A stretch of DNA of 14,619 nt, from UHGV virus genome UHGV-1690626; one strand, 5' to 3'. Both the position numbers and the translations under genes were made by a program. The notes beneath the pieces are model-generated. The model made no database searches. It saw only the letters and a list, made by a program, of their open reading frames with translations, and had not been told where the DNA came from. Numbering within the stretch: the stretch's first letter is position 1; every line of letters starts with the position of its first letter. This document shows, piece by piece, positions 1-14,619 of the stretch. This stretch comes from a virus.

Positions 1-2
1 CA

Positions 3-629
3 CACATACGCTTCCCCGGGCTGAAGGATTTTGTTAGAGACGCGGGTGTTTATAACCGGGATACGTTCAGGAATGTTGTAAACGTAAACCATTTTAATTC
101 ATCAGCTGAATACGAAAATGCTATTGCCCGGGGGCATGACGGCACAGCCAAAAGCCCCCTGGGGATGAGCATCAGGTATCGTTACGAGATAACTGATGAA
201 CTGGGTGTTATAGCCTCTTTTACATGGGCGCGCTCCATGACTAATGCGCAGGCATTTATTGATATTAACCCAGGAGATGAATCCAGAGAGGTTAAAAATC
301 CGGCAGCTTCAGCGAGAACTGATATCAGGGCTAATTACTGGAGCCTGTTAGCGGGTCCTTCGTGGCGGTTTAACGAATACCTCAGTGTGTATGCAATGGC
401 TGGTATGGGCGTAGCTAAAGTTACCGCTGACCTGAAAATTAAGGACAACATTAACAGTACCGGTGGATTTTCTGAAAGCAACAGTACGAAAAAAACAGCA
501 CTTGCATGGGCTGCTGGTGCACAATTTAACCTGAATGAAAGTGTTGCTATGGATGTCGCGTATGAAAGCTCCGGATCTGGTGACTGGCGCACGAGCGGGG
601 TTGTTGTAGGTATTGGCCTGAAATTCTGA
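3..629 (+). CDS. lom: Lom/Ail/PagC-family outer-membrane beta-barrel protein, 5'-partial in this window
   Basis: Frame-3 translation aligns by eye with lambda Lom and Yersinia Ail along its length (IRYRYEITDELGVIASF, YWSLLAGPSWRFNEYLSVYAMAGMG, C-terminal SSGSGDWRTSGVVVGIGLKF ending in an aromatic residue). The frame is open back to nt 3 with no in-frame ATG/GTG/TTG before the ATG at 165 and no signal-peptide-like stretch, so the true N-terminus is either outside the window or lost. Stop TGA at 627-629. Confidence 0.8.
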   Translation, partial: HIRFPGLKDFVRDAGVYNRDTFRNVVNVNHFNSSAEYENAIARGHDGTAKSPLGMSIRYRYEITDELGVIASFTWARSMTNAQAFIDINPGDESREVKNPAASARTDIRANYWSLLAGPSWRFNEYLSVYAMAGMGVAKVTADLKIKDNINSTGGFSESNSTKKTALAWAAGAQFNLNESVAMDVAYESSGSGDWRTSGVVVGIGLKF

Positions 630-651: not shown

Positions 652-680
652 AACCCGCTGTGATGGCGGGTTTTTTGTTG
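652..680 (+). terminator. Rho-independent terminator downstream of lom
   Basis: Stem CCCGC (654-658) / GCGGG (666-670) with a 7-nt loop, flanking A-T pairs, then TTTTTTG (671-677), starting 23 nt after the lom stop. Confidence 0.7.
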
Positions 681-861: not shown

Positions 862-1002
862 ATGTCGCAAAAATCGCTCATCACCGTCACAATTTGTATG
901 ACGGTAATCTTCACCATCTGGATGTTACACGGCTCGTTGTGTGAGTTCCGGCTGAATTTGTGGGGAGCGGAGTTTGCGGCGTTCTTACAGTGTAAGCAGT
1001 AG
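862..1002 (+). CDS. hok: Hok/Gef-family type I toxin (46 aa small membrane peptide)
   Basis: Not in the ORF track (too short). ATG at 862 preceded by AGGAGA (848-853) with 8-nt spacing. Product MSQKSLITVTICMTVIFTIWMLHGSLCEFRLNLWGAEFAAFLQCKQ has an N-terminal hydrophobic helix followed by the SLCE.R ... E.AAF..C pattern I recognise from Hok/Gef/HokA-type toxins. Stop TAG 1000-1002. Confidence 0.6.
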   Translation: MSQKSLITVTICMTVIFTIWMLHGSLCEFRLNLWGAEFAAFLQCKQ

Positions 1003-1058: not shown

Positions 1059-1460
1059 ATGGCACCCGTTTCAGGTGAGAGAATGGACGACAGAATTCTC
1101 CGGTATATGCAGCGTGTTGTGAGAAATTCCCGCAACCCTGAATTTATGAATGAAGTTAAAGACGCCTGCCTTAAAAAGCAGGCGTTTTGCTTTGAAGCGC
1201 CGGATGGTTTTCTGGTGCTGCGTTCTGTGCTCAGTGACGATGGTATCCCTTATGTTCTGGTGTTGCTGGGTGTGTGTACGGGGTGTGCCGGTGTTGAGCG
1301 TTATCTGCCGGAGGTGAAGACATTAACCCGCCTGGCTGGCGGACGCTGGGCCGAATTTCATACGGCAAGACGAGGATTTATCCGGCTGGGAAAACGTCTG
1401 GGCTTTGAGCGAATGCCGGATGATGAGGATGGCTTCATGGTGTTCAGGATAGCAGTCTGA
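1059..1460 (+). CDS. Hypothetical 133-aa protein with C-x6-C ... C-x2-C cysteine pattern
   Basis: ORF track ORF; GAGG 10 nt upstream of ATG 1059 (alternative in-frame ATGs at 1083, 1107, 1146). Cysteines at about aa 37, 44, 73 and 76 (VCTGCAG). No family recognised. Confidence 0.5.
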   Translation: MAPVSGERMDDRILRYMQRVVRNSRNPEFMNEVKDACLKKQAFCFEAPDGFLVLRSVLSDDGIPYVLVLLGVCTGCAGVERYLPEVKTLTRLAGGRWAEFHTARRGFIRLGKRLGFERMPDDEDGFMVFRIAV

Positions 1461-1512
1461 CTGCCACTGTATTCATCATCGAGCGTAAACCCACATTGCA
1501 ATTCACATTCTG

Positions 1513-1537
1513 ACCCTGCTCCGGCAGGGTTTTTTGT
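1513..1537 (+). terminator. Rho-independent terminator immediately upstream of the RBS of the five-gene module
   Basis: CCCTGC (1514-1519) / GCAGGG (1524-1529) with loop TCCG, then TTTTTTG (1530-1536); followed by GAGGAG (1543-1548) and ATG at 1554. Confidence 0.7.
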
Positions 1538-1553
1538 TATCTGAGGAGCCATT

Positions 1554-2210
1554 ATGGGCGGAAGTAAAGGTGGTGGTGATACCAAAGTAAAACCAACAGC
1601 AGCGCAAATAGCACAGGAAGAGGTGGCCTGGAAAGGGTGGCAGGATTACAAAAATATTCTCCGTCCGGCAGAAGATAACTTCATGAAAAAGGTCGATGAC
1701 CTTAACAGTGAGCAGCAGTACGAAAATATCGCAGGCACAACAAATCTTGGGTATCAGAAACAGTTTGGTGAAGCGCGAAGGGAGCTGGCGGGTAATCTTG
1801 CTCAGTCCGGCGTTGACCCATCCAGTGGTCGTTTTAATGCAGTAATGGATGCAAATCAAAGCGACCAGGTGATCGGGCAGATTGACACGACCACACGGGG
1901 GCAGGTATCGCAGGCAGATAAATATATTGCCGGGCTACAGGATGTTGCGGCTCTCGGTTCCGGTCAGAAGGCAGATGCGTTACAGAGTTTTAACTCCCTG
2001 GCTGACAGCAGTCTGGCAAAAGCCAAATCGGATGCACAGGCGGCGTTTACGAAACAACAGGGGCGAGCTTCTCTTGTTGGCGCTGGTCTGGGAGCTGTAG
2101 GTGCGTACGCGATGCATAAGGCTGGCGGTAACGGAGGTGGTGGCGGCGCTAAAACGCCAGGCACCGGCGCTAATGCTATTCAGCATCAGGCTCAGAACTG
2201 GAGACTGTAA
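1554..2210 (+). CDS. Hypothetical 218-aa protein, Gly-rich with a C-terminal glycine-zipper-like hydrophobic segment; first gene of the module
   Basis: GAGGAG SD 5 nt upstream of ATG. C-terminal LVGAGLGAVGAYAM followed by GGNGGGGG. Stop lies 2 nt before the next start codon. Confidence 0.75.
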   Translation: MGGSKGGGDTKVKPTAAQIAQEEVAWKGWQDYKNILRPAEDNFMKKVDDLNSEQQYENIAGTTNLGYQKQFGEARRELAGNLAQSGVDPSSGRFNAVMDANQSDQVIGQIDTTTRGQVSQADKYIAGLQDVAALGSGQKADALQSFNSLADSSLAKAKSDAQAAFTKQQGRASLVGAGLGAVGAYAMHKAGGNGGGGGAKTPGTGANAIQHQAQNWRL

Positions 2211-2212
2211 TT

Positions 2213-2659
2213 ATGGAGTATGGCAAATACGAAACTCTCGCAAGGGCTGGTTATTCAGGCGCAGCCCGCCCACAGGGTGACTGGCAGACATCCGCCGCGC
2301 TGACACGCCAGCAATACGACGACTGGCGAACCAGATATTTGCCCCGCGTGGCAAGGCTGGCTGACCTTGGTGAGAACAACAGCCTGATGAATGCACAGCT
2401 TGCCCGGGTGGGCGGCCTTGCCACTTCCAGTCTCCGTACAGCGCAGATGGCGCAGGATAACCAGATGGCACGATATGGCGTTAACCGACCTGATAATCCC
2501 AACAGTAATACGCTGGGGTTACGTAATGCCCTGGCAATTGCTGGCGCGAAAAATGGTATCCGTGAAGCAGAGCAGGATCGTCAGATGAACATACTGACGG
2601 GGGCTTCTGCACCTGCAAGACAGCAACTGAGTGTTGGCGGACAACTGGTGTCAGCTTAA
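2213..2659 (+). CDS. Hypothetical 148-aa protein (Gln/Arg/Ala-rich), translationally coupled
   Basis: ATG 2 nt after the upstream stop; GGAGA about 10 nt upstream inside the previous gene. No family recognised. Confidence 0.7.
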   Translation: MEYGKYETLARAGYSGAARPQGDWQTSAALTRQQYDDWRTRYLPRVARLADLGENNSLMNAQLARVGGLATSSLRTAQMAQDNQMARYGVNRPDNPNSNTLGLRNALAIAGAKNGIREAEQDRQMNILTGASAPARQQLSVGGQLVSA

Positions 2660-2668
2660 GGAGGAAAT

Positions 2669-2920
2669 ATGGGATACGGTTTACTGGATATTGCGAATCA
2701 GTCACGTCGAGAGGCATTACAGGGAATAAGTGACGCCGACAGGCGACGTGAAGAAATTGAGGCTGCTAACAAGCAGATGGCGGCGCAACAGAAAGCGCAG
2801 AACAAACAGAATATCGGCACGGGAATTGGTACGGGTGCAGCTATGGGCGCTGCTGTTGGTGGTCTCCCCGGTGCGGCTATTGGTGCTGTCATAGGTGGTA
2901 TTGCTGGTTCTTTGTTTTAA
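2669..2920 (+). CDS. Small 83-aa protein: charged coiled-coil N-terminus plus C-terminal glycine-zipper (GxxxG) membrane segment
   Basis: AAGGAGG SD ahead of ATG 2669. C-terminal GTGIGTGAAMGAAVGGLPGAAIGAVIGGIAGSLF is a textbook glycine-zipper hydrophobic helix. Confidence 0.75.
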   Translation: MGYGLLDIANQSRREALQGISDADRRREEIEAANKQMAAQQKAQNKQNIGTGIGTGAAMGAAVGGLPGAAIGAVIGGIAGSLF

Positions 2921-2930
2921 GGAGTGGTGA

Positions 2931-4196
2931 ATGAGCGGATTTGCACAGGGTTTACTTGCCGGATTCAGCACGGTTGACCAGGCAATGACCCGTCGTAAGG
3001 AACTTGGTTTGCGAGAAGCACAGCTTGCTCAACAACAGAAAAATAACGAGCGCGATTTTGAATTTGCACAGTCGCAGTTTGAACATAATAAAGACGTTGA
3101 TCAGCGGAACTTTGATTACAGAGCCAAAGTCGACGACCGTAATTATGCACTGCAGGAAAGGGAGTTTAACGCCAACCAGAATTACCGGAATGCGTCGCTG
3201 GGTATGGAGCAGCAGCGACTCCGGATGCAGAAATACAACCAGCGACGGCTTGAGTATAACGATATGCTGGCGCGCGATCAGCCTGTGATGGCGGCGCTTG
3301 GAAAGGCTGTGGATGCTGGCGATCGGGATGCAGCAATGCGTCTTTACGGCCAGTTGTCAGAGGGTAATCCGCTGAGGCTGATGGCGAATGATGGCTATGT
3401 AGCGAAAGCGGGTCAGGCCGTGAACAACCTGCAAAAAATCTTTGATGACAAGCCGGACAGGGCTATCGCTTCACTTAATACGCCGGAGAATCTTGATGTC
3501 CTTTCCGGGGTGTTTGGCCCGGAACTGCAACAGCGTATTGGCATGCCCGATTCAACCGGGAAAAAGACGATAAAAGAGGCCAGGATTGGCAGTATCGTAC
3601 CGGCGCAGCAGGAAGGGTACGTACTTATTGGCCTTGATCTCACATACAGCGATGGCTCCACCGCGCATAAACCTGTAACAGAATACGGCAGTGCACATCC
3701 TGATGATCAAACCGTGCTGGCGGTGCCTGTTGATAAGGCTGTTGAGCTTGTCAGGGATCGCAGTAAATTCGCGGAAATTTCGAAAAATTTCGGCTATTTC
3801 ACGCCGAAGCAGCAGGGACTTTCTCTGGCGAAACTTCAGGAAGGAGCCAGCAGTGTAGCGGCGGAAGCGATCAAGAACGGCGGGAATGCTCAGGCGGCGG
3901 TGGATGAGTATTACGCTGCAACTGGTTCACCGCAACATCAGCAGAAAATTCAGCAGCAAAAAATTCAACAAGGGATTACCAGTTGGGCGGGTGATGATCC
4001 GGATAAGCAGGCATTCGCCAGAGAAGTTGCTTCCCGTCAGCCAGAAATGCTGGAGCCTCAGAATCAGAAATTGCTGGAAAACGGGTATGCGAATTTTCTC
4101 CGTATTCAAAAGGCTAAGGGGGAACAGGCCAGAGATGATAGTGCGGCCTCTGCATCTGAGTTTATCCGTGGTCTGAAACAGAATTACGCGCAGTAA
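2931..4196 (+). CDS. Hypothetical 421-aa protein with Gln/Arg-rich predicted coiled-coil N-terminal third
   Basis: AAGGAG SD ahead of ATG 2931, which is the first in-frame start after a TGA. Contains the QQKIQQQKIQQ repeat (nt about 3942-3975). No enzymatic motif recognised. Confidence 0.75.
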   Translation: MSGFAQGLLAGFSTVDQAMTRRKELGLREAQLAQQQKNNERDFEFAQSQFEHNKDVDQRNFDYRAKVDDRNYALQEREFNANQNYRNASLGMEQQRLRMQKYNQRRLEYNDMLARDQPVMAALGKAVDAGDRDAAMRLYGQLSEGNPLRLMANDGYVAKAGQAVNNLQKIFDDKPDRAIASLNTPENLDVLSGVFGPELQQRIGMPDSTGKKTIKEARIGSIVPAQQEGYVLIGLDLTYSDGSTAHKPVTEYGSAHPDDQTVLAVPVDKAVELVRDRSKFAEISKNFGYFTPKQQGLSLAKLQEGASSVAAEAIKNGGNAQAAVDEYYAATGSPQHQQKIQQQKIQQGITSWAGDDPDKQAFAREVASRQPEMLEPQNQKLLENGYANFLRIQKAKGEQARDDSAASASEFIRGLKQNYAQ

Positions 4197-4227
4197 TTCA
4201 CCATTCCTGTTAATACTATTTCCTGAT

Positions 4228-4253
4228 ACCCGGTCATTGTGCCGGGTTTTTTT
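4228..4253 (+). terminator. Rho-independent terminator immediately upstream of the giant gene's RBS
   Basis: ACCCGG (4228-4233) / CCGGGT (4242-4247) with loop TCATTGTG, then a run of seven T (4247-4253); GGAG at 4256-4259 and ATG at 4265. Confidence 0.75.
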
Positions 4254-4264
4254 ATGGAGTCTGT

Positions 4265-7200
4265 ATGGCTTATTCCGATGAACAGCGCCCTGAAGCGCAA
4301 TTTGGCAACCAGAACCGCAACAGCCTGAACATTCAGCAGCCGGGCGAGACTGACAGCTATGATGCGTTTTTCTCCGATCCCAATCGCTGGAAGGACAACA
4401 GCACGTCGTTCAGCCTGGGCGATGTATTGCCAACTATGGGGAAAGGTGTCGCCCAGTCCATCCGGGGGACAGGGGAAATGGCCCGTGGACTCGGTGATGC
4501 GATGATTCAGAGTCCTGTAAAAACAGGGGCGCGTATTTTAAATGAGTTCAGCCGTATGGGGCTGCCGGGAGTCGCAACTGTTCAGGATATTTTTGTCGGT
4601 GGCAGCAAGGGGGCGGATGAGGTCATCGACACTCTGCCTGATGGAAAAAATGCGGTTACTGATACTGTCGGTAAAGGTCTGAAGGCCACAGGCAAGGCAG
4701 TCAGTGATGGTGCCAAAGCCTCGGATGAATGGCTGACAGATCAGATGTCGCCGGGTGCTGTTCGTGCGCTGAACACGCCAATGAGTGAAGGCTATGATGA
4801 TTCTGCGGTCTTGCTGACGAAGGGTGTAAACCTGATTGGTGCGCTTGTACCTGATCTGGTTGCAGGCGGTGTGACTAAAAAGCTGGGTGAAGTCACTCTG
4901 CGAAAAGTGCTGACCGCCGGGCTGGAGAAAAAATACATTGCGGCAGGGATGCAGCCGGAAAGAGCTACCGCACTGGCAGCAGAAGCTGTCGATAAAAAAA
5001 TGCCGGATTTATTCCAGGCAGGCCTGATCACCCATTCCTCAGCCAGCGCACAGGGGCAGAGTGCAATGGCAGCAGCAGACTCTGTTCTTAACGCGGATTA
5101 CTCTGAGCTGGCGAAGTCCCCGAAATTTCAGCAGACGTTTTTGTCAATTGATGCAGATCCGCAGCACGCACAGCTTACTGATCGCCAGAAAATGGATCTG
5201 GCAAAAGAGCGTGTTGCCGATGAGGTGCGCGCGCAGCTGGCAACCGATCCTCAGTTGCTGGCTGTGAATGCCATGGCGGCAAAACTGGGCGATGCACAGT
5301 TGCTTAATCTGGCGATGCGGGGTACGGCGAAGACCGTTAAGAGCGGCATTATCAGAAACGCCACAGAACAGGGCGTAATTAACGGGGCGCAGGGCGGCTA
5401 TTCGCGTTACCAGGAAAATATGGCGTTGCGTGAGACCGCCGGAATGGATGTGTCGCCGTGGGAGGGCGTGGCTGACGCAACAATCGACGGTGCTGCTCTT
5501 GGTGCAGCGATGGGGGCTCCATTTGGCGCGGTTGCCGGATATCGTGGCAGACGTCAGGCCGCAGACGAAGCCGCCATGCGTGAGGCTGAAGTCGTACAGC
5601 AGGGTGAAGCAGCCCCGCAACCCGAACCGGTTGATCCGGTGGCACAGCATCGTGAATCCATGCAGGGCATGAACCGCGAGCAGCTTCTGGAACAGTATGC
5701 TGATGCGGATATGGCACATGAGGGAGACACGTCTGCCGTTCATCGCCGGGAAGCCGCCAGCCAGCTGTTAAATGAACTGGATGAACAGGCGAAGCGACAG
5801 GCGGTGATGGATGAGCTGAAGGCGAAGCCGCGCCCTGAACTGCTTGAGGAATACCGAAAACTCAGCCTGAAGGAAGGGCGTACTGATACTGAAGAGCAGC
5901 AGTTACAGGCTATCCGTGATGTGCTTCGCCCTCAGCAGGAGGCCAGACCGGAGGCACAGCCACAGCCGGAAAATGCGGATGATGGCGACGGGAGTATTTA
6001 CCCGACGGTGCGGTTCCGCGATCCGGATGAAGTTCGTATTGAAATTAACGGGAGTGGTGCGTCCAGACCAGCAGAACGCATTGAAAAGGTGCGTCCGGAC
6101 AACCGTTATTTCACGGATGAAAAAAGTGCTCTGGGGAGCGACGTTTTCCGCAATGCCAGCGCCACCGGCCTGAAACCGTCCGTAGTGAAGAAAGGCGAGA
6201 ATCAGTATGCCGTTGAAATGGATAATCCTGCGTTCTCTGAAGATGTGGCAACGGAGACCATTAACACTCTGGCTGACGGAGAGCGTATTACTGATGCTGA
6301 TCCGATGGAACAGCCCGCGTTCATGCGTGACCCGCGATTCCGTGGTTTCACGGGGGATGATACAGAAGTGCAGGCCCGCCTTGCCCGTGGCAACGCGCCG
6401 ACGGCAGAGGAGCTTGTACGTTCACAGATGGCTGAAGGTGATGCCGGTCCGACAGCACAGGAGTTAACTGAGCGTCCACGCCTTCCCGCTCCCGGCGATA
6501 TTCATCCCGGACAGGGATATCCGTTACCAGGAGAAGTGGCGCGTACGCCGGATGAAAATCAGGCCGGACGTGGTGGTCGTTTTACCACAACCGGTGAGGT
6601 GAAGGGCCAGAGTTTCCAGAAAGGACGTGCGCAGGCACCGGAAAATGCCGCTGGTCGCCAGGGGGAAATACTGGAGGGCGAACCGGTTCGTCGTGGTCTG
6701 CCGTCACCGGATGAGCAGAACGCCACAGCACCAGTGCGTGAAGGACTTCCTGCACCTGAACAGCGTGGGGTTGATATGCCACATCCTGAATCACTCCCTC
6801 GTATGGTTCGTGACTCCCTTCCGGAACTGGCACAGCAGGCAGAAGCGCGCAGACAGACCGGGGATAATCGCCAGACCATAACCGATGTTCCGGATACTGA
6901 GGTGCCGGTGCCGGTGCCGGTAGATAAACCGAGCACTCACCAGCAGGCGCGTGGTGCAAAAATAGAAGACTTTGGCGAGGAGATTAAGGGCGCGGCAAAA
7001 CACCGTTATGCACAGCTTGCCGAAACACTGGGTAAAACGCTGGAAGACAGGGATTATGTCACGCAACCGCTGAGCAAACTGTTCCCGAAACCGGACTACG
7101 CAAAACTGGCGAACGAAGGTGCCGATGCTGATACCCTGGCAATGATAGCGCTGTATCGTAGCGATATTCCGGCGAAGACGAAACACAATACGGCTGGCTG

Positions 7201-10200
7201 GGGGGAGAGCGTAAAAAAAGTACGACACAGTGTATCGGAAATGCTGAACGGAACGGTCAGCGCGAAACGCCTCGCAGAATGGATGGAAGGCAGAATGCCC
7301 TCCCGTTACGCGGATACCTGGCAACTGTTACGCACGCTGCCACCTTCACAGATGGACAAGGCTTCTGCTTATCGGGTGGTATCGGGTGTGTATCAGGCGG
7401 CAGGAGGGAAGCGTTACGATCCGCCACAGAAACTTTATTCACTGCGCAATAAGGACAATAAGGGGACTAACCTCTTTTTCTCGGAAAGCAGGGATGAATT
7501 ACTGACAAAGGCGAAAGTCTGGTTTGCAGAGCTGGAGGAAAAGTCACAGGCGAAAGGTGATGAAAAAACAGCACCGTCACCGGATGACAAAATCAGCTTT
7601 GACGTTTACCGGAATACCCGCAGTGGCGATATTTTTATCGCTTATGGCAAAAACAAAATGCGGGTGAGAGGTGGCTTTAAGTCAGCCAGTGATGCGCGTA
7701 AGTACATTGATTCACATCGTGATGAGCTTGTTCGTCATGTGAAGGAGATGCGGGAGATTTCGCGTGAGGAGCAGCGTAACGCCACCAACCGCGATCGTAC
7801 CGGACCAGAACGCCGCAAGGGGGATGTTTCGCCGGAGCAGTTCAGTGATGCGTTTGGTTTTCGTGGTGTGCAGTTTGGTAATTATGTGGAAGGTCCGCGT
7901 CGTCAGGCTGATTTGAACCGGGCTTATGACTCGCTGCATGACCTGGCTGATGTGCTGAACGTGCCGACAAAAGCGCTTTCTCTGAACGGTCGTCTTGGGC
8001 TTGCTTTTGGTGCCCGTGGTAAGGGTAAGGCGGCGGCACACTATGAGCCGGGTGAGGTGGCAATCAACCTGACAAAAGGTAACGGACCGGGGGCGCTGGC
8101 CCACGAATGGTTCCATTCACTGGATAATTATTTTGGTCGTTATGATGTTTCCACTGACGGGAAGATCACGTCAGGTGGCGACTATATGACGGAAGCACAG
8201 CGTGCCGGGCGCGTATTTAAAGACGGCAGATATGTTGATGCGGAATATCCGGTACGTCAGGAGGTTTACGACGCGTTTAAAGGCGTGATGAAAGCGATCA
8301 ACAGCAGTGACATGCCGCGTCGTTCAGCGCTTCTCGATGAGGTGCGCTCAAAACCGTACTGGTCAACGGATGTTGAAATGGCGGCGCGTGCCTTTGAGCG
8401 TTATGTTCAGGATAAAGCGCGTACGGCTGGCGTGGAGAATGATTATCTGGTCAATATCCGTAAGGCACCTGAGCACAACACAGATAACACCTGGGCTTAT
8501 CCGACGAATGCGGAACTGGATGGTGGCATTCGTGAGGCATTCGATCACCTGTTCCGCACCCTGAAAACCCGTGAGACGGACAAGGGCGTTGCGTTTTATT
8601 CCCGTAAGGGCGTGACCCGCACACCTGAAGGCAATCTCATTTCGGATGTTAACCGCAGTGCGGAAGCCAAAGGCAGCCCGGTCCCGCAGGTTGAAGCGGT
8701 TGCCCGTGGCGTGATGAGTGGCATTAAGGACAGTGACCTGAAGGTCCGCGTGGTGAAGTCACAGAAAGAGGCTGAAGCACTGGCGGGTGAATCATTCGAC
8801 GGTTACGGCAAGGTGCACGCGTTCTATCGTCCGGATAAACGTGAAATTGTCCTGGTGGCGGATAACATTCCTGACGGGCGGACCGTTCGCGAGAAGCTGC
8901 GTCACGAGATTATCCACCATGCAATGGAGCATGTAGTCACGCCAGCGGAATATCAGACGATTATTAAGACCGTACTGAAAACCCGTGACAGTGATAACGC
9001 CACCATCCGTGAAGCCTGGCGTAAGGTTGATGCGTCTTATGGTAAGGAATCACCGGAAGTGCAGGCGGGTGAATTTCTGGCACATATGGCGGAGAAACAG
9101 CCGAATAAATTCGTGGCGGCATGGGAGCGTGTTGTTGCCCTGGTCAAAGGGGTACTGCGTCGCACGGGGTTACTGAAGCCGACAGAGCTGAACGATATCA
9201 GACTTGTTCGCGAAACTATTCGCACGTTAGGCCAGCGTGTGCGGGAAGGTTACACGCCGCGTGAGGATGGCGCTGGCGCATCGTCTCAGTACTCCCGTAG
9301 CGGTAAGCCTGATCCGTTCAAAGTGCCGGAAGGTGAGGGCGAGCGTTATCGTGATGACCTTGCCAGAATGATGAAGTCTCTGCGCTCAACGGATTTAACG
9401 GTAAACATCGGGCGTACGCCGCCGGTATTGCGTCACCTTGGCGCACCAGATTTGCCGCTGGTTATCTCCCGCGACACTGTGCGTAAGGCCACCAATGGTG
9501 TGAAACATGTGGTGCCGATGGATGTTATCGAGAGACTACCGGAACTGATGCACGATCCGGATGCAATTTACCGTTCCGCGACAGAAAGAAATGCGGTTGT
9601 GATGCTGCTTGATGCCATGGATAAAAATGGTGATCCTGTAGTGTCAGCGGTACACATGAAGGCTGTCCGGTCGCGCCTGGAAATCAACAAGGTAGCTTCA
9701 GTTTACGGTACAGAAAATGGAAAAAAACTGAAGAGTATGGAAATGACCGGGTTAACGTTGTACCGGAGAGAAAAATTAAGCCGCGATAACCTTCTGCACA
9801 GAGGGCTTCAATTGCCCAAAGGGGAACATTCTTATCGCGGCTCTGCGGATAAAATACTCTATCCTGAAGATATTCGCAAGGGGCCGCATTACTCCCGTAC
9901 CAGCAGTCTGACACCGGAAGAGACAATTGCATCGCGTTTTGTGCGCCAGATGCAGGATAAATTCCAGGTGCTGAAAGCTGTTCAGGAGAATATCCGTAAA
10001 ACTGGCGGAAAAATAGACGACAGTAACAACGCTTATATGGCAGAAGAACTCTTCCACGGGAAGGCGGAAAACGACCTGAACGTGATGAAGGAGCGCTATG
10101 TTCAGCCGCTGGCTAAATTACTGGCGGACTACAAAATTGCGCAGGCCGATCTGGATGAGTACCTCTACGCCCGTCACGCGCCGGAACGTAACGCGCATAT

Positions 10201-12634
10201 CGCGAAAATCAACCCGAAAATGCCGGACGGCGGTTCGGGGATGACCAACGCGGAAGCGGCGGAAATCATGCAGCGTGTGCGTAACAGTGGCAAACAGGCA
10301 CAGTATGACCGTCTGGCAGGGATTGTTGACGATATGCTGGCCCGTCGCCGTGAGCTTATCCGTGAGGCCGGACTGGAAGAGAGCGGTGTGGTGGATGCCT
10401 GGCAGAAAGCCTACCGTTACTACGTTCCCCTGAAAGGGCAGGATGTTGACGGTGTGGTGTCACTGCCCCGTACAGGTAAAGGCTTCACTATCGGCGGACG
10501 TGAAAGCAGGCAGGCCATGGGGCGTGCATCCCGCGCACAGTCTCCTTCCACTCAGGCGATACAGGATTTGAGCGAATCGCTGATCCGCAATCGCAAAAAT
10601 GAAGTGGGTAACGCCTTCCTGAAACTGGTACAGGATAATCCAGACAAGGATTACTGGCAGGTATTCACCAATGAGCGACCGGACACCATGCGTGCGATTG
10701 CAGAGCGTGTTGTTCCGGAAACCGGTGAAACCCGTCACGAAGTTGTCGAACGTCCTGTACCGATGGCAATGATGGCAGACCGGTACTTCACCACCAAAAA
10801 GAACGGCAAAACGTACTACATCAAACTCCATGATCCGCGCCTGATGCGTGCGATGAAGAATATGGGACCGGAAACCAGTAACGCCGTAATCCGCACGCTG
10901 GGGAAAGTTAACCGCTTCCTGGCAACGGTGAACACGTCGTATAACCCGGAATTTCTGGTCAGTAACTTCATCCGTGACGTGCAGACGGCGGTGATGAACC
11001 TGAAGGCGGAGCAGGGAAGGAGCGACGGTAAACTGAAAGGGCTGGATAACTTATCCGCCCTGGCTGTGGTGAAAGACAGCCGTTCTGCCATGTCAGCCGT
11101 ATACGCCAGTCTGCGTGGTAAAACCCTCACGGGCAAAGGCGCACAGTGGCAGAAAGTGTGGAAAGAGTTTGTTGAGGACGGAGGTAAAACCGGCTGGTTT
11201 AACATGGGTGACCTTGAAGGCCAGCAGAAGGAAATGGATCGCCTTGTATCGCTGGCGAAGGGAGGATGGAAAGGCCAGAGTATCGGTGCATGGAATTCGT
11301 TCCTTAACCTTGTCGAGGATGCCAACGGTGCGGTTGAAAACGCTCTGCGTCTTTCTGCCTATAAACACGCCCGTGATGCTGGTTTGTCACGCCAGCAGGC
11401 GGCGTCTCTTGCCAAAAACATGACGGTGAACTTTAACCGTCGTGGTGAGCAGGGAGCGCTGATGAACTCGCTGTATATGTTTGCCAACGCCAGCATTCAG
11501 GGGACCGCAAACCTGGTGAGAACGCTCGGACATCTTAATGGCGACGGGCCGTTACCGGAGCGCCTTCGCTGGAAGAATCTCAATGTACCGCAGAAAATCG
11601 CGCTTGCAGCTGTGGGAGCGGGTTATCTGCTTGGCTCGCTTAACCGCAGTGTTGCGGGGGAGGATGATGACGGGGTTAACTGGTATGACAAGGTGCCGTC
11701 TCATGTGAAAGAGCGTAACCTCGTCATTATGAAATCGGTGTTCGGGGGCAAGGCCGGAGAGTACTGGAGTATTCCTCTGCCTTACGGGTACAACGTTTTC
11801 TTCCTGCTCGGGCATACTGCTGAAGGTGTGGCAGCGGGCGACCTGACTGCTTCACGTGCTGCCGGTAATGTTGTCGGTGGTATCCTGGGGGCATTCAGTC
11901 CTGTGGGCAGTGAAACGTCGGAAACACTGTCCGGGGCATTGCTGAAAAATGCAGCGCCGACCATTCTGCGTCCGTTTGCGAACCTTGCCATGAATGAAAA
12001 CTTCATGGGGGCGCAGATTTACCAGGAGAACATGCCATTTGGCACACCGAAACCGGACAGCCAGCTGGGCAGACGTTCAACGCCTGAGGCGTACAAGGCG
12101 TTTGCATCCTGGCTGAATGCGTTCTCAGGTGGCAGCCAGTATCGTCCCGGCGCGGTGGATATCACACCGGAATCGCTGAAATTCTGGATTGACTATATCT
12201 CCGGAGGGACAGGGCGCTTCATTTCCAAAACCACAGATGCGGCGGTGAAATCGCTGAACGGTATTGATATACCGGAGCAGCAGGTGCCCTTCCTGGGGAA
12301 AATTTCGGGTGAGGTGATGCCGTATGCTGACCAGCAGAAGATGTATGACCGGATGACGGAGGTTGCGCAGTACCACGCAGAGCTGAAGAGTCTGACCGGT
12401 GCAGAAAGAACGGCATTCATTGACGAGAACAACGGAAAATTGTCGATGAACGGGCTTATGCAGGATACCCGGAAGAGACTGAAGGATTTGCGTAAACAAC
12501 GTGATGCCATTTACGCCGACAGTACTCTCAGTCTGGCGCAACAGTCGGCGATGGTGAAATCGGTAGAGCGGGATATGAAAATTGCCGTGGATCGGTTTAA
12601 CCGCGAGTACAACAAAAAAGTGGGAGTGGATTAA
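4265..12634 (+). CDS. Giant 2,789-aa multidomain protein with two HExxH zincin-like motifs; candidate virion-delivered polyvalent or ejection protein
   Basis: Uninterrupted 8,370-nt ORF with GGAG 6 nt upstream. ALAHEWFHSLD at aa 1280-1284 (nt 8102-8116) and LRHEIIHHAMEH at aa 1547-1551 (nt 8903-8917). Acidic Pro/Glu/Gln/Arg-rich low-complexity stretch at aa about 430-900. Glycine-zipper-like segment IDGAALGAAMGAPFGAVAGY at aa about 405-425. Hydrophobic/Gly-rich stretches in the C-terminal 700 aa. No Walker A, DEAD-box or single-subunit RNA polymerase motifs seen by eye. Reality of the CDS is high confidence; function is inference. Confidence 0.85.
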   Translation: MAYSDEQRPEAQFGNQNRNSLNIQQPGETDSYDAFFSDPNRWKDNSTSFSLGDVLPTMGKGVAQSIRGTGEMARGLGDAMIQSPVKTGARILNEFSRMGLPGVATVQDIFVGGSKGADEVIDTLPDGKNAVTDTVGKGLKATGKAVSDGAKASDEWLTDQMSPGAVRALNTPMSEGYDDSAVLLTKGVNLIGALVPDLVAGGVTKKLGEVTLRKVLTAGLEKKYIAAGMQPERATALAAEAVDKKMPDLFQAGLITHSSASAQGQSAMAAADSVLNADYSELAKSPKFQQTFLSIDADPQHAQLTDRQKMDLAKERVADEVRAQLATDPQLLAVNAMAAKLGDAQLLNLAMRGTAKTVKSGIIRNATEQGVINGAQGGYSRYQENMALRETAGMDVSPWEGVADATIDGAALGAAMGAPFGAVAGYRGRRQAADEAAMREAEVVQQGEAAPQPEPVDPVAQHRESMQGMNREQLLEQYADADMAHEGDTSAVHRREAASQLLNELDEQAKRQAVMDELKAKPRPELLEEYRKLSLKEGRTDTEEQQLQAIRDVLRPQQEARPEAQPQPENADDGDGSIYPTVRFRDPDEVRIEINGSGASRPAERIEKVRPDNRYFTDEKSALGSDVFRNASATGLKPSVVKKGENQYAVEMDNPAFSEDVATETINTLADGERITDADPMEQPAFMRDPRFRGFTGDDTEVQARLARGNAPTAEELVRSQMAEGDAGPTAQELTERPRLPAPGDIHPGQGYPLPGEVARTPDENQAGRGGRFTTTGEVKGQSFQKGRAQAPENAAGRQGEILEGEPVRRGLPSPDEQNATAPVREGLPAPEQRGVDMPHPESLPRMVRDSLPELAQQAEARRQTGDNRQTITDVPDTEVPVPVPVDKPSTHQQARGAKIEDFGEEIKGAAKHRYAQLAETLGKTLEDRDYVTQPLSKLFPKPDYAKLANEGADADTLAMIALYRSDIPAKTKHNTAGWGESVKKVRHSVSEMLNGTVSAKRLAEWMEGRMPSRYADTWQLLRTLPPSQMDKASAYRVVSGVYQAAGGKRYDPPQKLYSLRNKDNKGTNLFFSESRDELLTKAKVWFAELEEKSQAKGDEKTAPSPDDKISFDVYRNTRSGDIFIAYGKNKMRVRGGFKSASDARKYIDSHRDELVRHVKEMREISREEQRNATNRDRTGPERRKGDVSPEQFSDAFGFRGVQFGNYVEGPRRQADLNRAYDSLHDLADVLNVPTKALSLNGRLGLAFGARGKGKAAAHYEPGEVAINLTKGNGPGALAHEWFHSLDNYFGRYDVSTDGKITSGGDYMTEAQRAGRVFKDGRYVDAEYPVRQEVYDAFKGVMKAINSSDMPRRSALLDEVRSKPYWSTDVEMAARAFERYVQDKARTAGVENDYLVNIRKAPEHNTDNTWAYPTNAELDGGIREAFDHLFRTLKTRETDKGVAFYSRKGVTRTPEGNLISDVNRSAEAKGSPVPQVEAVARGVMSGIKDSDLKVRVVKSQKEAEALAGESFDGYGKVHAFYRPDKREIVLVADNIPDGRTVREKLRHEIIHHAMEHVVTPAEYQTIIKTVLKTRDSDNATIREAWRKVDASYGKESPEVQAGEFLAHMAEKQPNKFVAAWERVVALVKGVLRRTGLLKPTELNDIRLVRETIRTLGQRVREGYTPREDGAGASSQYSRSGKPDPFKVPEGEGERYRDDLARMMKSLRSTDLTVNIGRTPPVLRHLGAPDLPLVISRDTVRKATNGVKHVVPMDVIERLPELMHDPDAIYRSATERNAVVMLLDAMDKNGDPVVSAVHMKAVRSRLEINKVASVYGTENGKKLKSMEMTGLTLYRREKLSRDNLLHRGLQLPKGEHSYRGSADKILYPEDIRKGPHYSRTSSLTPEETIASRFVRQMQDKFQVLKAVQENIRKTGGKIDDSNNAYMAEELFHGKAENDLNVMKERYVQPLAKLLADYKIAQADLDEYLYARHAPERNAHIAKINPKMPDGGSGMTNAEAAEIMQRVRNSGKQAQYDRLAGIVDDMLARRRELIREAGLEESGVVDAWQKAYRYYVPLKGQDVDGVVSLPRTGKGFTIGGRESRQAMGRASRAQSPSTQAIQDLSESLIRNRKNEVGNAFLKLVQDNPDKDYWQVFTNERPDTMRAIAERVVPETGETRHEVVERPVPMAMMADRYFTTKKNGKTYYIKLHDPRLMRAMKNMGPETSNAVIRTLGKVNRFLATVNTSYNPEFLVSNFIRDVQTAVMNLKAEQGRSDGKLKGLDNLSALAVVKDSRSAMSAVYASLRGKTLTGKGAQWQKVWKEFVEDGGKTGWFNMGDLEGQQKEMDRLVSLAKGGWKGQSIGAWNSFLNLVEDANGAVENALRLSAYKHARDAGLSRQQAASLAKNMTVNFNRRGEQGALMNSLYMFANASIQGTANLVRTLGHLNGDGPLPERLRWKNLNVPQKIALAAVGAGYLLGSLNRSVAGEDDDGVNWYDKVPSHVKERNLVIMKSVFGGKAGEYWSIPLPYGYNVFFLLGHTAEGVAAGDLTASRAAGNVVGGILGAFSPVGSETSETLSGALLKNAAPTILRPFANLAMNENFMGAQIYQENMPFGTPKPDSQLGRRSTPEAYKAFASWLNAFSGGSQYRPGAVDITPESLKFWIDYISGGTGRFISKTTDAAVKSLNGIDIPEQQVPFLGKISGEVMPYADQQKMYDRMTEVAQYHAELKSLTGAERTAFIDENNGKLSMNGLMQDTRKRLKDLRKQRDAIYADSTLSLAQQSAMVKSVERDMKIAVDRFNREYNKKVGVD
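6902..6919 (+). repeat. In-frame tandem hexanucleotide repeat (GTGCCG)x3 encoding VPVPVP
   Basis: ggtgccggtgccggtgccggta read directly in the sequence, inside the low-complexity region of the giant gene. Confidence 0.9.
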
Positions 12635-12664: not shown

Positions 12665-12757
12665 TGATTAAGAAATAAACACACATTAACCTGTTATAAC
12701 CGGAGCTATTAACATATAGTCAGAAAGAGTATTTCATGTGAGACAGAGAGCCGATTT

Positions 12758-12949
12758 ATGTTTAATGAAGAAAAAGTTGCGTAAATGGCAGCGTATTTGC
12801 TGAAAAAGCATGGCGGATCTATGCGTTTCATTAAGCTGATGAAGCTGATGTATCTCTCTGACCGCAAAGCAATGGAGTCTTTAACCGGGAAGGGGAGAGG
12901 TTTGAATGCTCCCCCACAATTCCCCGGCATCAAATCTCCATGCAGGTGA
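12758..12949 (+). pseudogene. Degraded remnant resembling the N-terminus of a Panacea (DUF4065)-domain protein
   Basis: ATG 12758 gives MFNEEKVA, then an in-frame TAA (12782-12784), then MAAYLLKKHGGSMRFIKLMKLMYLSDRKAMESLTG. This matches the remembered N-terminal pattern of Panacea-domain proteins (KLxKLxY), but the downstream part of the domain is missing and the frame ends at 12949. Confidence 0.3.
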
Positions 12950-13023: not shown

Positions 13024-13596
13024 TCATTGGCGTACCTCCTTCGGCGGTTCTGGTAGCGGCATCCAGTGGGTTACTTCTTTGAGATGCAGGTCTTCGCCAT
13101 CACCGTCATCCCAAGTGGGATTGCCATCATTAAACCAGTCGCCATATACGCCGACCTGAGTGTTGGGGATGCTTGGTGGGTAGTTGTTTTTAAAGTCAGC
13201 TGCTAACACATAGTATTGTCGCTCTCCCATTTCTGGCATCCGCTCACTACAGCTTATCCAACTATCCGGAGTTCCCGGAGAGTTGCCATTTACATCGAAG
13301 TTTGGCTCTGCGTCCTGAACCAGGAGGATGTAACCATTCTTGGCAGTATCAAGTTCTAACGCCTCGGTGACGGTGCCGAAATAGCGATTACCTAAATCAG
13401 CATCACAAGTGCTTACATCAATGGAAACTTCCATGCCCTCGATTAATTCTGGCAAGTTGTAAGTTTGGCTTACAGGTTCGGCTTCCAGAGATGCCAGCGC
13501 AATCCGTGCAAGTTCCATTTGTTCGCCACGGGTAAGTCCGTTATCAAGCGGATTTTTAATGAATAATTCGATACGTTCTTTGGTTATAGCGCTCAT
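13024..13596 (-). CDS. DUF551-domain phage protein (190 aa)
   Basis: C-terminal LKEVTHWMPLPEPPKE matches the W-x-P-L-P-E-P-P signature I associate with DUF551 proteins of lambdoid early regions. ATG at 13596 with AAGGAG SD chosen over the TTG at 13677 reported in the ORF track. Start lies 1 nt after the upstream gene's stop. Confidence 0.65.
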   Translation of the reverse strand: MSAITKERIELFIKNPLDNGLTRGEQMELARIALASLEAEPVSQTYNLPELIEGMEVSIDVSTCDADLGNRYFGTVTEALELDTAKNGYILLVQDAEPNFDVNGNSPGTPDSWISCSERMPEMGERQYYVLAADFKNNYPPSIPNTQVGVYGDWFNDGNPTWDDGDGEDLHLKEVTHWMPLPEPPKEVRQ

Positions 13597-13597
13597 C

Positions 13598-14383
13598 TCA
13601 CTCTCCTTTGATACGAATGCCCGCGGCGTGTGGCACATTAACTTCCACGATGCGCACTGTTGGTTTGTACATCTCAATCGCTGTCAGCCAGTCAGCTCCT
13701 GTCATGCGCTTTTCCGCATCGCCATTAGTCCACTTAACCGGTACACCAATAGACTTCATCGCGATTTCTATTTCCCCGGCGATGGCGCTTTTTCCGCAAC
13801 CAGTAAAACCAGATACAACGACAAGAACTTCGCCTTTGGCTGGTTTTATTTCCCGTGCTTCCTGCCCTGATTTGCGCAGCAAAACAGCGTACTTTAATGC
13901 GTCCTGGGCTTTCTGAAATTTCAGTGCATAGTCAGTGGCGATTTTCTCCAGTTCAGCAATACGCTTACTCCCATCCGAGATAACACCTTCGTAATACTCA
14001 CGCTGCTCGTTGAGTTTTGATTTTGTCTCCTCAAGCTCAACGCGCAGCTTCCCTACCGTTAGCGCAATATCCTCGTTCTCCTGGTCGCGGCGTTTGATGT
14101 ATTGCTGGTTTCTTTCCCGTTCATCCAGCAGTGCCAGCACGGTAGCCGGATTGGCTGCGGCGATGAATTCAGCATTGGCCTGCTGTTCCATTTGGAAATC
14201 TTCATCGAAACCGCTTTCAGGATGTGCTCCTTCAATTCTGCAAATGGGAATATATCCAGCAGCCTCGCGATGAATTAGTGCATCATCACCATCAAATCGG
14301 TTCTCTCCATATTCGAGCGACCACTCACCACGCGTTGCTTTTTCTGCCTTTTCACGCAGTACCTGATAGTTAATCTCGCTCAT
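13598..14383 (-). CDS. Ead/Ea22-like early-region protein (261 aa) with coiled-coil middle and a Walker-A-like motif near the C-terminus
   Basis: N-terminal MSEINYQVLREKAEKATRGEW plus a long charged coiled coil resemble Ea22-like proteins of lambdoid early-left operons. GFTGCGKS (nt about 13777-13800) fits G-x4-G-K-S. ATG at 14383 preferred over the TTG at 14407. Confidence 0.55.
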   Translation of the reverse strand: MSEINYQVLREKAEKATRGEWSLEYGENRFDGDDALIHREAAGYIPICRIEGAHPESGFDEDFQMEQQANAEFIAAANPATVLALLDERERNQQYIKRRDQENEDIALTVGKLRVELEETKSKLNEQREYYEGVISDGSKRIAELEKIATDYALKFQKAQDALKYAVLLRKSGQEAREIKPAKGEVLVVVSGFTGCGKSAIAGEIEIAMKSIGVPVKWTNGDAEKRMTGADWLTAIEMYKPTVRIVEVNVPHAAGIRIKGE

Positions 14384-14619
14384 TTTTCTCTTCGCTCCGG
14401 TATACAAGAATTACAACGTCACCTCTGCTAATTACGCGAGCTGGACCTCCTGGCTCCATGCTGTCAATCCCGAAGGCTTCGGAAAACGCATTCATTGCCT
14501 TCTGGCGTTGATCCTGCTTACGGCATTTATTCCATTTTTTCAGTAACAACAGCGATAGCCACCGCCCGGCGCAGAACATAATGTAAAAATAACCAAGAAG
14601 CGCCAGACCTGTGTTGAGG
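14370..14619 (-). CDS. Hypothetical protein, 3' part only (5' end beyond window), with a hydrophobic stretch
   Basis: Minus-strand frame is open from the window edge to the stop at 14370-14372. Contains LALLGYFYIMFCAGRWLSLLLL. Overlaps the Ea22-like start by 14 nt. Confidence 0.4.
   Translation of the reverse strand, partial: LNTGLALLGYFYIMFCAGRWLSLLLLKKWNKCRKQDQRQKAMNAFSEAFGIDSMEPGGPARVISRGDVVILVYRSEEKNERD

Follow-up and report, generated by a model that had tools for sequence, protein, structure and literature searches.

A six-gene block in the window UHGV-1690626 as a probable internal-virion protein module of a 933W/Sp5/phi24B-type podophage

Gene content and layout of the block

The window analysed here is a stretch of 14,619 nucleotides (nt) from the virus genome UHGV-1690626, and at 1059-12634 it carries a block of six rightward genes, the last of which encodes a giant protein of 2,789 amino acids (aa) (Table 1). 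A first-pass annotation, made from the sequence alone, had listed five plus-strand open reading frames (ORFs) of 218, 148, 83, 421 and 2,789 aa in this region. All five are confirmed at their positions, as are the gaps of 2, 9 and 10 nt between the first four of them (1554-4196) and the strong Shine-Dalgarno sites, with GGAG or AAGGAG standing ahead of each of the five starts. The description of a compact five-gene module holds for the spacing of these first four genes, but the giant gene is set apart by 68 nt, within which a terminator-like hairpin is followed by the GGAG of the start at 4265, and a sixth gene precedes the five. All five products of 1554-12634 match, over their full length, PHROG families annotated as 'unknown function'. 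As an ORF of 8.4 kb would not arise by chance and the PHROG matches are full-length, the five genes are considered real and widely conserved. The conserved unit also includes the 133-aa gene, since all six genes are collinear in Vibrio and Aeromonas podophages.

Table 1. Features of the block and of the giant protein, followed by transcription signals and neighbouring genes (positions in the window)
Feature	Position	Strand	Basis or remark
133-aa protein (Sp5 ORF75)	1059-1460	+	ORF list; PHROG 610
218-aa protein (Sp5 ORF76, phi24B gp51)	1554-2210	+	ORF list; PHROG 611
148-aa protein (Sp5 ORF77, phi24B gp50)	2213-2659	+	ORF list; PHROG
83-aa protein (Sp5 ORF78)	2669-2920	+	ORF list; PHROG
421-aa protein (Sp5 ORF79, phi24B gp48)	2931-4196	+	ORF list; PHROG
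Giant 2,789-aa, 307-kDa protein (Sp5 ORF80, phi24B gp47, 933W L0134)	4265-12634	+	ORF list; full-length PHROG 616
Giant: N-terminal conserved region, aa 130-508	4652-5788	+	phmmer to Vibrio giant aa 95-472, E 3e-34; tblastn
Giant: glycine-zipper-like hydrophobic segment, aa 406-433	5480-5563	+	hydrophobic 19-mers; weak Gly-zipper matches
Giant: Pro/Glu/Gln-rich acidic stretch, ~aa 440-900	5582-6964	+	composition; no Pfam domain
Giant: LPD5, aa 1047-1196	7403-7852	+	Pfam PF18799, E 3e-45
Giant: CLCA_X-type zincin metallopeptidase region (predicted), aa 1178-1433	7796-8563	+	NCBIfam NF041907, E 1.1e-44
Giant: HEWFH (HExxH), aa 1280-1284	8102-8116	+	motif inside zincin region
Giant: LPD1, aa 1357-1436	8333-8572	+	Pfam PF18796, E 1e-23; overlaps zincin region
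Giant: second HExxH (HEIIH), aa 1547-1551	8903-8917	+	motif; only weak Peptidase_M76 match, E 0.24
Giant: MuF_C, aa 1746-1835	9500-9769	+	Pfam PF18819, E 2e-17
Giant: conserved C-terminal module, aa 1841-2789	9785-12631	+	mostly helical, with small beta domain
Giant: LPD38, aa 2472-2677	11678-12295	+	Pfam; within C-terminal module
Terminator-like hairpin and T-run	652-672	+	after lom
Terminator-like GC hairpin and T-run	1512-1531	+	just upstream of 218-aa gene
Terminator-like hairpin and T7	4228-4247	+	in gap before giant gene
lom	1-629	+	cut by window start; frame open from base 3
Hok/Gef ORF, 46 aa, MSQKSLITVTICMTVIFTIWMLHGSLCEFRLNLWGAEFAAFLQCKQ	862-1002	+	Pfam HOK_GEF, 33.2 bits vs gathering score 22
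DUF551 protein	13024-13677	-	leftward early gene; Pfam
Ead/Ea22 protein	13598-14407	-	leftward early gene; Pfam

Over their full length, the six proteins share 87-97% identity with their counterparts in the phages phi24B, VT2-Sakai/Sp5 and POCJ13, where the gene order is the same; the giant is 94% identical to the phi24B and Sp5 versions. In 933W, the three parts compared (the 133-aa protein, the 218-aa protein and the C-terminal module of the giant) are 94-98% identical. Sp5 ORF numbers were assigned to the proteins of the window by protein length, according to Table S1 of Mondal 2016 (133, 218, 148, 83, 421 and 2,793 aa for ORF75 to ORF80, respectively; PMC5155283). ORF75-ORF80 of Sp5 correspond to gp52-gp47 of phi24B (vb_24B_43-48), and the window contains the same genes in the same order, with allelic variation only. 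The three strong hairpins in the late operon (Table 1) presumably do not stop the Q-modified polymerase; their effect in the lysogen could be to insulate the two morons, lom and hok, from the virion genes.

Domain organization of the giant protein

By its domain content (LPD5, zincin, LPD1, MuF_C, and LPD38), the giant belongs to the large polyvalent proteins. With the polyvalent proteins of Iyer 2017 (PMC5512222) it shares LPD5, LPD1, LPD38, MuF_C, the zincin hub and the location among late virion genes; that class has been framed as effectors of conflict, whereas the orthologue of the giant is essential even where there is no known defence barrier. LPD5, LPD1, MuF_C and LPD38 each exceed the Pfam gathering cut-offs, and the match to NF041907 is a domain-level one (positions 3-245 of 250) that lies below the whole-protein cut-off. 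Besides the glycine-zipper-like segment listed in Table 1, hydrophobic or glycine-zipper-like segments are located at aa 181-199, 2441-2463 and 2500-2519. The acidic stretch rich in Pro, Glu and Gln is probably an extended or disordered linker.

The predicted metallopeptidase is assigned to the LPD5-LPD1 region and not to MuF_C, because the CLCA_X match with its HEWFH motif lies at aa 1178-1433. MuF_C has been described as a PBECR RNase-fold domain (Iyer 2017, PMC5512222); the wording of the phi24B preprint calls MuF-C a metallopeptidase (10.64898/2026.04.10.717836). The zincins of polyvalent proteins have been argued to act by self-cleavage processing (Iyer 2017, PMC5512222), and for the giant, self-cleavage seems more likely than digestion of peptidoglycan. 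Pfam searches with the giant and its sub-segments, at E up to 5, found no lytic transglycosylase domain, and neither a methylase nor a helicase Pfam domain was found in it. The absence of enzymatic motifs noted in the first-pass annotation thus applies to the four small proteins of 1554-4196, for which Pfam and NCBIfam return no enzymatic signature, but not to the giant with its two HExxH motifs and zincin domain.

An AAA+ ATPase (COG1483), suggested by Mondal 2016, was considered for the giant and rejected. Neither [AG]xxxxGK[ST] nor a looser P-loop occurs in the 2,789 aa, and no ATPase is found in Pfam or NCBIfam; lacking both a Walker A motif and an ATPase family match, the suggestion is unsupported. 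The GenBank record of phi24B (HM208303) annotates three antisense ORFs within the giant gene (vb_24B_50c-52c; 8192-8515, 10667-11047 and 11398-11769, minus strand). The virion proteome lists no entry for them, and the few other reverse-frame entries in the block have a single peptide-spectrum match (PSM) each; the three ORFs are probably spurious.

The C-terminal module in other phages

The last 949 aa of the giant constitute its best-conserved part. In tblastn searches, the module is 41% identical in approximately 100 Vibrio phages, 26-28% identical in Ralstonia GP4-like (gp68) and Burkholderia Bcep22-like (BcepIL02 gp70) phages, and 22-23% identical in a Bacteroides phage and in the Bacillus phage Page. 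A profile of the module matches the Vibrio, BcepIL02 and GP4 proteins with E values of 0 to 1e-157 and the Aeromonas protein with 7e-37. Invariant polar motifs in an alignment of 40 sequences include HAPERNAH, YNPEF..NF.RD, ENA.RLSAY, NFNR.GE, YMFANASIQG, and PLPYGYN. Pfam LPD38 covers only approximately 190 aa of the ~950-aa module, which is predicted with confidence as one fold; this predicted fold has no match in the PDB. It recurs, with different cargo each time, in giants of GP4, of Bcep22-like phages and of coliphage PTXU04, a polyvalent protein of which is among its fold matches.

The domains that precede the module vary in the protein database and comprise methyltransferases, an ADP-ribosyltransferase (PF18760), LPD3, GGDEF, and others; RelA/SpoT is found among the cargo of relatives sharing the module, and some relatives carry LT_GEWL. 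This distribution suggests that the ~950-aa C-terminal fold is the constant part behind swappable cargo in podovirus giant proteins. In JC1, mass spectrometry showed gp69 to be associated with the virion, along with gp68 and gp67 from the genes immediately upstream, and the 2,198-aa LPD38 protein of PTXU04 (PTXU04_00025) is needed for efficient infection; the JC1 virion data and the PTXU04 requirement argue for a core rather than an accessory role of the module.

The homologues in Bcep22-like phages (BcepIL02 gp70, JC1 gp69) and in GP4 (gp68) are encoded by the last gene of the morphogenesis block, and the particles of these phages, with T=9 heads and GP4-like tails, are of the same type as phi24B. 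Where the giant of the window has LPD5, zincin and MuF_C, theirs carry a methylase and a helicase, a cargo that is truly DarB-like. Membership of the giant in the DarB family, as the PHROG label 'DarB-like antirestriction' would imply, was rejected: the part shared with the labelled proteins is the Bcep22-type C-terminal module, which P1 DarB lacks. Neither the giant (phmmer) nor the module profile matches P1 DarB, while BcepIL02 gp70, used as a positive control, matches it with its middle only (E 3.7e-55). Since the module profile misses P1 DarB and BcepIL02 gp70 is DarB-like only in mid-protein, the label is inapplicable to the giant of the window.

The small proteins

The first-pass annotation had described the small proteins as rich in coiled coils and glycine zippers; a glycine zipper is confirmed for the 83-aa protein by a Pfam match, and a long helix is predicted in the 421-aa protein. 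In the 83-aa protein, a charged N-terminal helix is followed by an uncharged glycine-zipper segment of 37 residues (aa 47-83), and the protein matches Pfam Gly-zipper_YMGG with an E value of 4.5e-6, just under the cut-off. Its annotation as 'bacteriocin' in some records rests solely on the glycine-zipper segment. The 148-aa protein is basic, with an isoelectric point of 10. The 218-aa protein, 94-97% identical to its phi24B, Sp5 and POCJ13 versions, is rich in Gly at its N-terminus and in Gly and Ala in a C-terminal segment. It is homologous to GP4 gp71, annotated as 'virion structural protein' (E 3e-7, reciprocal), and matches, more weakly, also a PHROG of that annotation; no other member of the small set has a detectable homologue in GP4 or the Bcep22-like phages.

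The 421-aa protein is characterized by a conserved GLxxGFxxGF N-terminus, with nearly invariant G7 and G11. Its AlphaFold2 model (predicted local distance difference test score, pLDDT, 82.9) begins with a 126-residue helix (aa 4-129), which is followed by an alpha/beta domain (aa 130-290), and its C-terminal part is again helical; the model has no fold match in the PDB. The family is small, with 73 clusters among 1.84 billion representatives. The gene is the most variable of the block: its product is 87-89% identical to those of the reference phages, where the neighbouring proteins reach 93-97%, and the identity among E. coli homologues is 77-90%. Some Stx2a phages align only to residues 82-421 or 109-421, in two places; these partial alignments suggest recombination or disruption within the long N-terminal helix. 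The supplement of the phi24B preprint labels the protein 'Transcription factor?', apparently from an old GenBank note.

The 133-aa protein contains one hydrophobic segment (aa 61-83) and is absent from the phi24B virion proteome table (10.64898/2026.04.10.717836). On account of this single segment and of its absence from virions, the protein may be an assembly factor, a suggestion that is weak.

Conservation of the six-gene linkage

In the Vibrio phage 1.205.O, six genes (V15-V20; 131, 201, 117, 77, 442, and 3,130 aa) directly follow the tail genes, and their products are homologous, position by position, to those of the block (E 1.6e-7, 3.5e-16, 2.8e-8, 6.8e-11, 2.7e-13, and 6e-275); with a profile of the 421-aa protein, the 442-aa protein of Vibrio is matched at E 1.2e-87. 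The same six collinear genes are present in the Aeromonas phage phiARM81mr, where p64-p68 are matched with E values of 6e-29, 4e-53, 1e-29, 5.5e-20, and 3.8e-18 and the giant (p69) is detected by profile only. According to tblastn, the 218-aa protein, the 421-aa protein and the N-terminus of the giant are each found in 289-291 phage records, of which approximately 186 are of the Shiga toxin (Stx) type and 102-104 are from Vibrio. Nothing separates the tail genes from the block in the Vibrio and Aeromonas phages, and no morons surround the block in Vibrio. Immediately upstream of the giant genes of GP4 and BcepIL02 lies a gene for a protein of ~510 aa, in which a 40-sequence profile detects no homology to the 421-aa protein; the two are analogous in position only.

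Before p69 of phiARM81mr, an unannotated gap of 1.86 kb (18048-19905) holds an open frame of 619 codons; the p69 gene may start well upstream of its annotated start.

Orthologues in genetic and virion studies

Every gene of unknown function in Sp5 was deleted in frame by Mondal 2016 (PMC5155283). Deletion of ORF79 (421-aa protein) or ORF80 (giant) yielded neither plaques nor lysogens, and both were complemented in trans; the mutants contained wild-type amounts of DNase-protected DNA and normal-looking heads. Deletion of ORF76 (218-aa protein) left the phage infectious, though severely impaired, while ORF75, ORF77 and ORF78 are individually dispensable on K-12 (PMC5155283).

All five products of 1554-12634 were detected in purified phi24B virions (bioRxiv 10.64898/2026.04.10.717836, April 2026), which answers the question, raised in the first-pass annotation, of whether these proteins might be missing from virions. 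The giant (gp47), with 10,962 PSMs, is second only to the capsid protein; gp48, gp51, gp50 and the 83-aa protein are represented by 1,634, 523, 129 (83 in-solution) and 13 PSMs, respectively, compared with 2,226 for the portal and 702 for the nozzle (10.64898/2026.04.10.717836). The PSMs of gp48 peak at the gel position of the full-length protein, while gp47 peptides smear from the top of the gel downwards (10.64898/2026.04.10.717836), a pattern compatible with either processing or degradation after storage. Cryo-electron microscopy (cryo-EM) of phi24B revealed a T=9 head; the tail is GP4-like and comprises the portal, two adaptor rings, nozzle, six fibres, and needle (10.64898/2026.04.10.717836). 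The giant gp47 was seen neither in the cryo-EM maps nor in negative stain; the authors of the preprint, who note LPD5, LPD1, LPD38 and MuF-C domains in it, propose an encapsidated ejection protein; gp48-gp51 are not discussed in the main text, and the 83-aa protein ('bacteriocin homologue') is set aside as a contaminant (10.64898/2026.04.10.717836).

Copy numbers were estimated from in-solution PSMs divided by protein length and scaled to 12 portal copies; these values are rough and not the authors' own, and for six of seven reference proteins they fall within approximately two-fold of the known number. Per virion, they amount to ~23 copies of the giant, 37 of the 421-aa protein, 48 of the 148-aa protein, 32 of the 218-aa protein and 6 of the 83-aa protein. 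Taken together, the five proteins would account for roughly 10 MDa, for which a T=9 head that also holds a genome of 58-63 kb would have room. In Riley et al. 2012, which deals with phi24B genes expressed in lysogen cultures, the genes of the block are not named by locus tag.

Proposed role and alternative explanations

The block 1059-12634 probably constitutes the internal-virion (ejection or 'pilot') protein module of a temperate podophage of the 933W/Sp5/phi24B type. Internal or ejected virion proteins, with a polyvalent giant, had been proposed in the first-pass annotation, and this proposal is supported by the orthologues found in virions, by the need for the 421-aa protein and the giant after packaging, and by the Pfam LPD domains. 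The block occupies the distal end of the late operon, which is transcribed under Q antitermination, and its five virion proteins would lie inside the head, perhaps also in the portal-tail lumen. Upon release of the needle at the BamA receptor, they would exit through the tail ahead of or with the DNA. Their glycine-zipper and hydrophobic elements (the 83-aa protein, the C-terminus of the 218-aa protein, the N-terminus and long helix of the 421-aa protein, and aa 406-433, 2441-2463 and 2500-2519 of the giant) might then insert in the envelope, so that the ~20-nm tail is prolonged into a conduit across it. In the giant, the conserved modules at the two termini would serve encapsidation, exit or the conduit, and the variable middle (LPD5, HEWFH zincin, second HExxH, MuF_C/PBECR) would be an early-acting cargo, possibly freed by self-cleavage of the zincin.

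Such a role has parallels in other podoviruses. T7 gp14/gp15/gp16 and P22 gp7/gp16/gp20 are likewise late internal proteins that serve infectivity and not packaging, and they are thought to bridge the envelope; the loss of Sp5 ORF79 or ORF80 differs in that it also abolished tail-fibre labelling. N4-like phages (Schitoviridae) offer an analogue in mode of action: they are T=9 podoviruses that pack a zincin-containing virion RNA polymerase of ~3,500 aa (gp50) and eject it with the DNA. In N4 and DEV, the giant gene stands beside genes for smaller ejection proteins (e.g., DEV gp71-73). The giant of the window differs from gp50 in having no RNA polymerase domain and, by the rough estimate above, in exceeding the 4 copies of N4.

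Several observations weigh against an ejection module. Exit from the capsid, entry into the cell and conduit formation are steps that we infer for all five proteins; no similarity in sequence (PDB) or fold to the solved ejection proteins of T7, P22 and N4-like phages was found, nor a lytic transglycosylase domain in Pfam, and the hydrophobic segments in the C-terminal module of the giant may be buried core helices of the predicted fold. P22 and T7 particles lacking ejection proteins keep their tails. The particles of the ORF79 and ORF80 mutants, in contrast, showed no anti-tail-fibre labelling, and the two were named genes of 'tail formation' (PMC5155283). Taken together, the missing labelling and the tails kept in P22 and T7 imply either that the proteins have a second role in holding the tail in place or that the model is not complete; a part of the protein set that resides in the portal-tail channel and stabilises the attachment would explain the lost labelling, and the 'internal tail contents' noted in the phi24B preprint may be relevant here. 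Furthermore, neither the 148-aa nor the 83-aa protein, taken singly, is required on K-12 (PMC5155283), and the latter was barely detected in virions (10.64898/2026.04.10.717836).

The mutant particles could also be explained if the 421-aa protein and the giant were components of tail assembly or structure, as proposed by Mondal 2016, acting as a scaffold, a chaperone or an energy-using factor without being ejected. The full heads devoid of fibre labelling agree with such a function, as does the position of the block directly after the tail genes, with nothing between them in the Vibrio and Aeromonas phages; moreover, the phi24B preprint notes 'internal tail contents' that constrain the orientation of the tail in full particles (10.64898/2026.04.10.717836). 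However, the tail of phi24B is complete in the cryo-EM model without these two proteins, gp47 is abundant and yet escapes both cryo-EM and negative stain, and copy numbers near or above that of the portal would not be expected of an assembly factor. The energy-using variant relies on the 'AAA+ ATPase' hint, for which the giant has neither a Walker A motif nor an ATPase match, and the negative immuno-electron microscopy results were given as data not shown (PMC5155283). A tail function is considered improbable, slightly more so than the anti-defence function discussed next. Homology to a tail fibre or a tape measure, which the first-pass annotation had named as evidence that would speak against internal proteins, was looked for in Pfam, PHROGs, NCBIfam and PDB sequences, and none was found; both candidates are rejected.

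An anti-defence system of the Dar type, in which the giant is mainly an injected effector of counter-defence or host takeover and the small proteins are factors that load it into the head and not a DNA conduit, is likewise unlikely as the whole explanation, although it can hold together with an ejection module as far as the middle of the giant is concerned. The polyvalent architecture with a zincin and a PBECR-like domain agrees with it; in relatives, this C-terminal module is combined with methylase, ADP-ribosyltransferase, RelA/SpoT or GGDEF as cargo, and the Bcep22-type ones are labelled 'DarB-like antirestriction' in PHROGs. The likeness to P1 DarB consists in a very large head-carried protein with small partners encoded nearby, which in P1 are the loading factors Hdf, DarA, DdrA and Ulx; the differing severity of the deletion phenotypes of the small genes would suit an order of loading. 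P1 DarB is dispensable on non-restricting hosts, whereas phage both raised and plated on K-12, which meets no restriction barrier, cannot do without the giant and the 421-aa protein, and the LPD38 protein of PTXU04 is needed for efficient infection of a laboratory host. The giant also differs from P1 DarB in showing no homology to it, in having no methylase or helicase and in being, as judged by its orthologue, essential and not accessory; the part that stays constant from phage to phage is the C-terminal module, which is non-enzymatic, and not the cargo.

A prophage-borne cassette for toxin delivery or defence, expressed from the lysogen, had been offered as the alternative in the first-pass annotation. 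The lom and hok/gef morons and the terminator-like hairpins that flank the block could be read in its favour, as could the 'bacteriocin' annotation of the 83-aa protein. Nevertheless, that annotation reflects the glycine zipper only, the proteins are present in virions and needed for infectivity, and the block adjoins the tail genes in the moron-free Vibrio phages. PADLOC returned only two matches at chance level (E ~0.004-0.007), both to the low-complexity 83-aa protein. This alternative is therefore dropped as highly improbable.

More tentatively, and with somewhat less than even confidence, the four small virion proteins might, together with the giant through its two conserved ends, represent a distinct ejectosome class of the T=9 podoviruses of the GP4/933W type, with the C-terminal module as an essential and universal carrier of swappable cargo. 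Such a class would have no relation, by sequence or by fold, to the systems of T7, P22 and N4; its cargo would be zincin/PBECR here and methylase-helicase, ADP-ribosyltransferase, RelA/SpoT, GGDEF or lysozyme elsewhere.

As the genes are the same as the published ones of Sp5, phi24B and 933W, the module is already known, from genetics in 2016, domain analysis in 2017 and virion proteomics in 2026. The first-pass annotation inferred the right kind of function from the raw sequence and overstated the novelty. Apparently new with respect to the published work on these genes are the recognition of one six-gene unit, the C-terminal fold as a cargo carrier and the corrected protease and ATPase assignments; the small partners have apparently not been discussed as a functional unit in published work on these phages. 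The block sits in the commonest type of Stx-converting phage and is an obvious candidate for the machinery by which DNA crosses the envelope after BamA binding, which bears on the rise of new strains of Stx-producing E. coli. The occurrence of the C-terminal module behind varied enzymatic cargo in many podoviruses suggests a general platform for protein injection by phages.

Source phage and genomic surroundings

The DNA of the window matches 461 phage records at 92-97% identity (megablast), mostly Stx-converting phages and their relatives (e.g., 933W, VT2-Sakai/Sp5, phi24B, and POCJ13), which are classed as Sepvirinae podoviruses. Among 5,426 complete E. coli genomes, 427 (~8%) contain the same 11.6 kb in a prophage. 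The closest matches are the phages GER2, PhiR5_2 and PhiR12_3, not the Stx phages of O157. In the matching Stx phages, the genes for the portal, capsid, adaptors, fibres, nozzle, and needle are followed by lom, the block and the leftward early genes. By these similarities, the window is the right end of the late operon of a short-tailed phage of the 933W/Sp5/phi24B type (Sepvirinae), not of a lambda-type particle. The first-pass annotation placed the module downstream of lom, where lambda carries stf/tfa. In the window, lom runs off the left edge and the Hok/Gef ORF lies between lom and the block; the comparison with stf/tfa is one of position only, because a Sepvirinae phage has a podovirus particle and not a lambda tail.

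The alignment to the window starts at base 171 in most Stx phages, at base 16 in GER2 and at base 102 in PhiR5_2. Since the phage alignments begin at different bases, the N-terminal part of lom is taken to be a different allele or a mosaic joint. The ORF at 862-1002 is, by its Pfam match, a type I toxin moron located between lom and the virion-protein block; its POCJ13 orthologue is annotated as 'MokW-like host killing'. No Sok-like RNA was found with Rfam at gathering thresholds, and no structured RNA in the window matches Rfam at gathering scores.

Past the stop of the giant gene, similarity ends at 12671 in GER2, at 12878 in PhiR5_2, and at 14177 or 14619 in other phages. These staggered ends mark a mosaic boundary at the passage from the late operon to the early genes, which point leftward. 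In phiARM81mr, a 'retron-type' reverse transcriptase is encoded amid the tail genes, at 7588-8874, and may belong to a diversity-generating retroelement.

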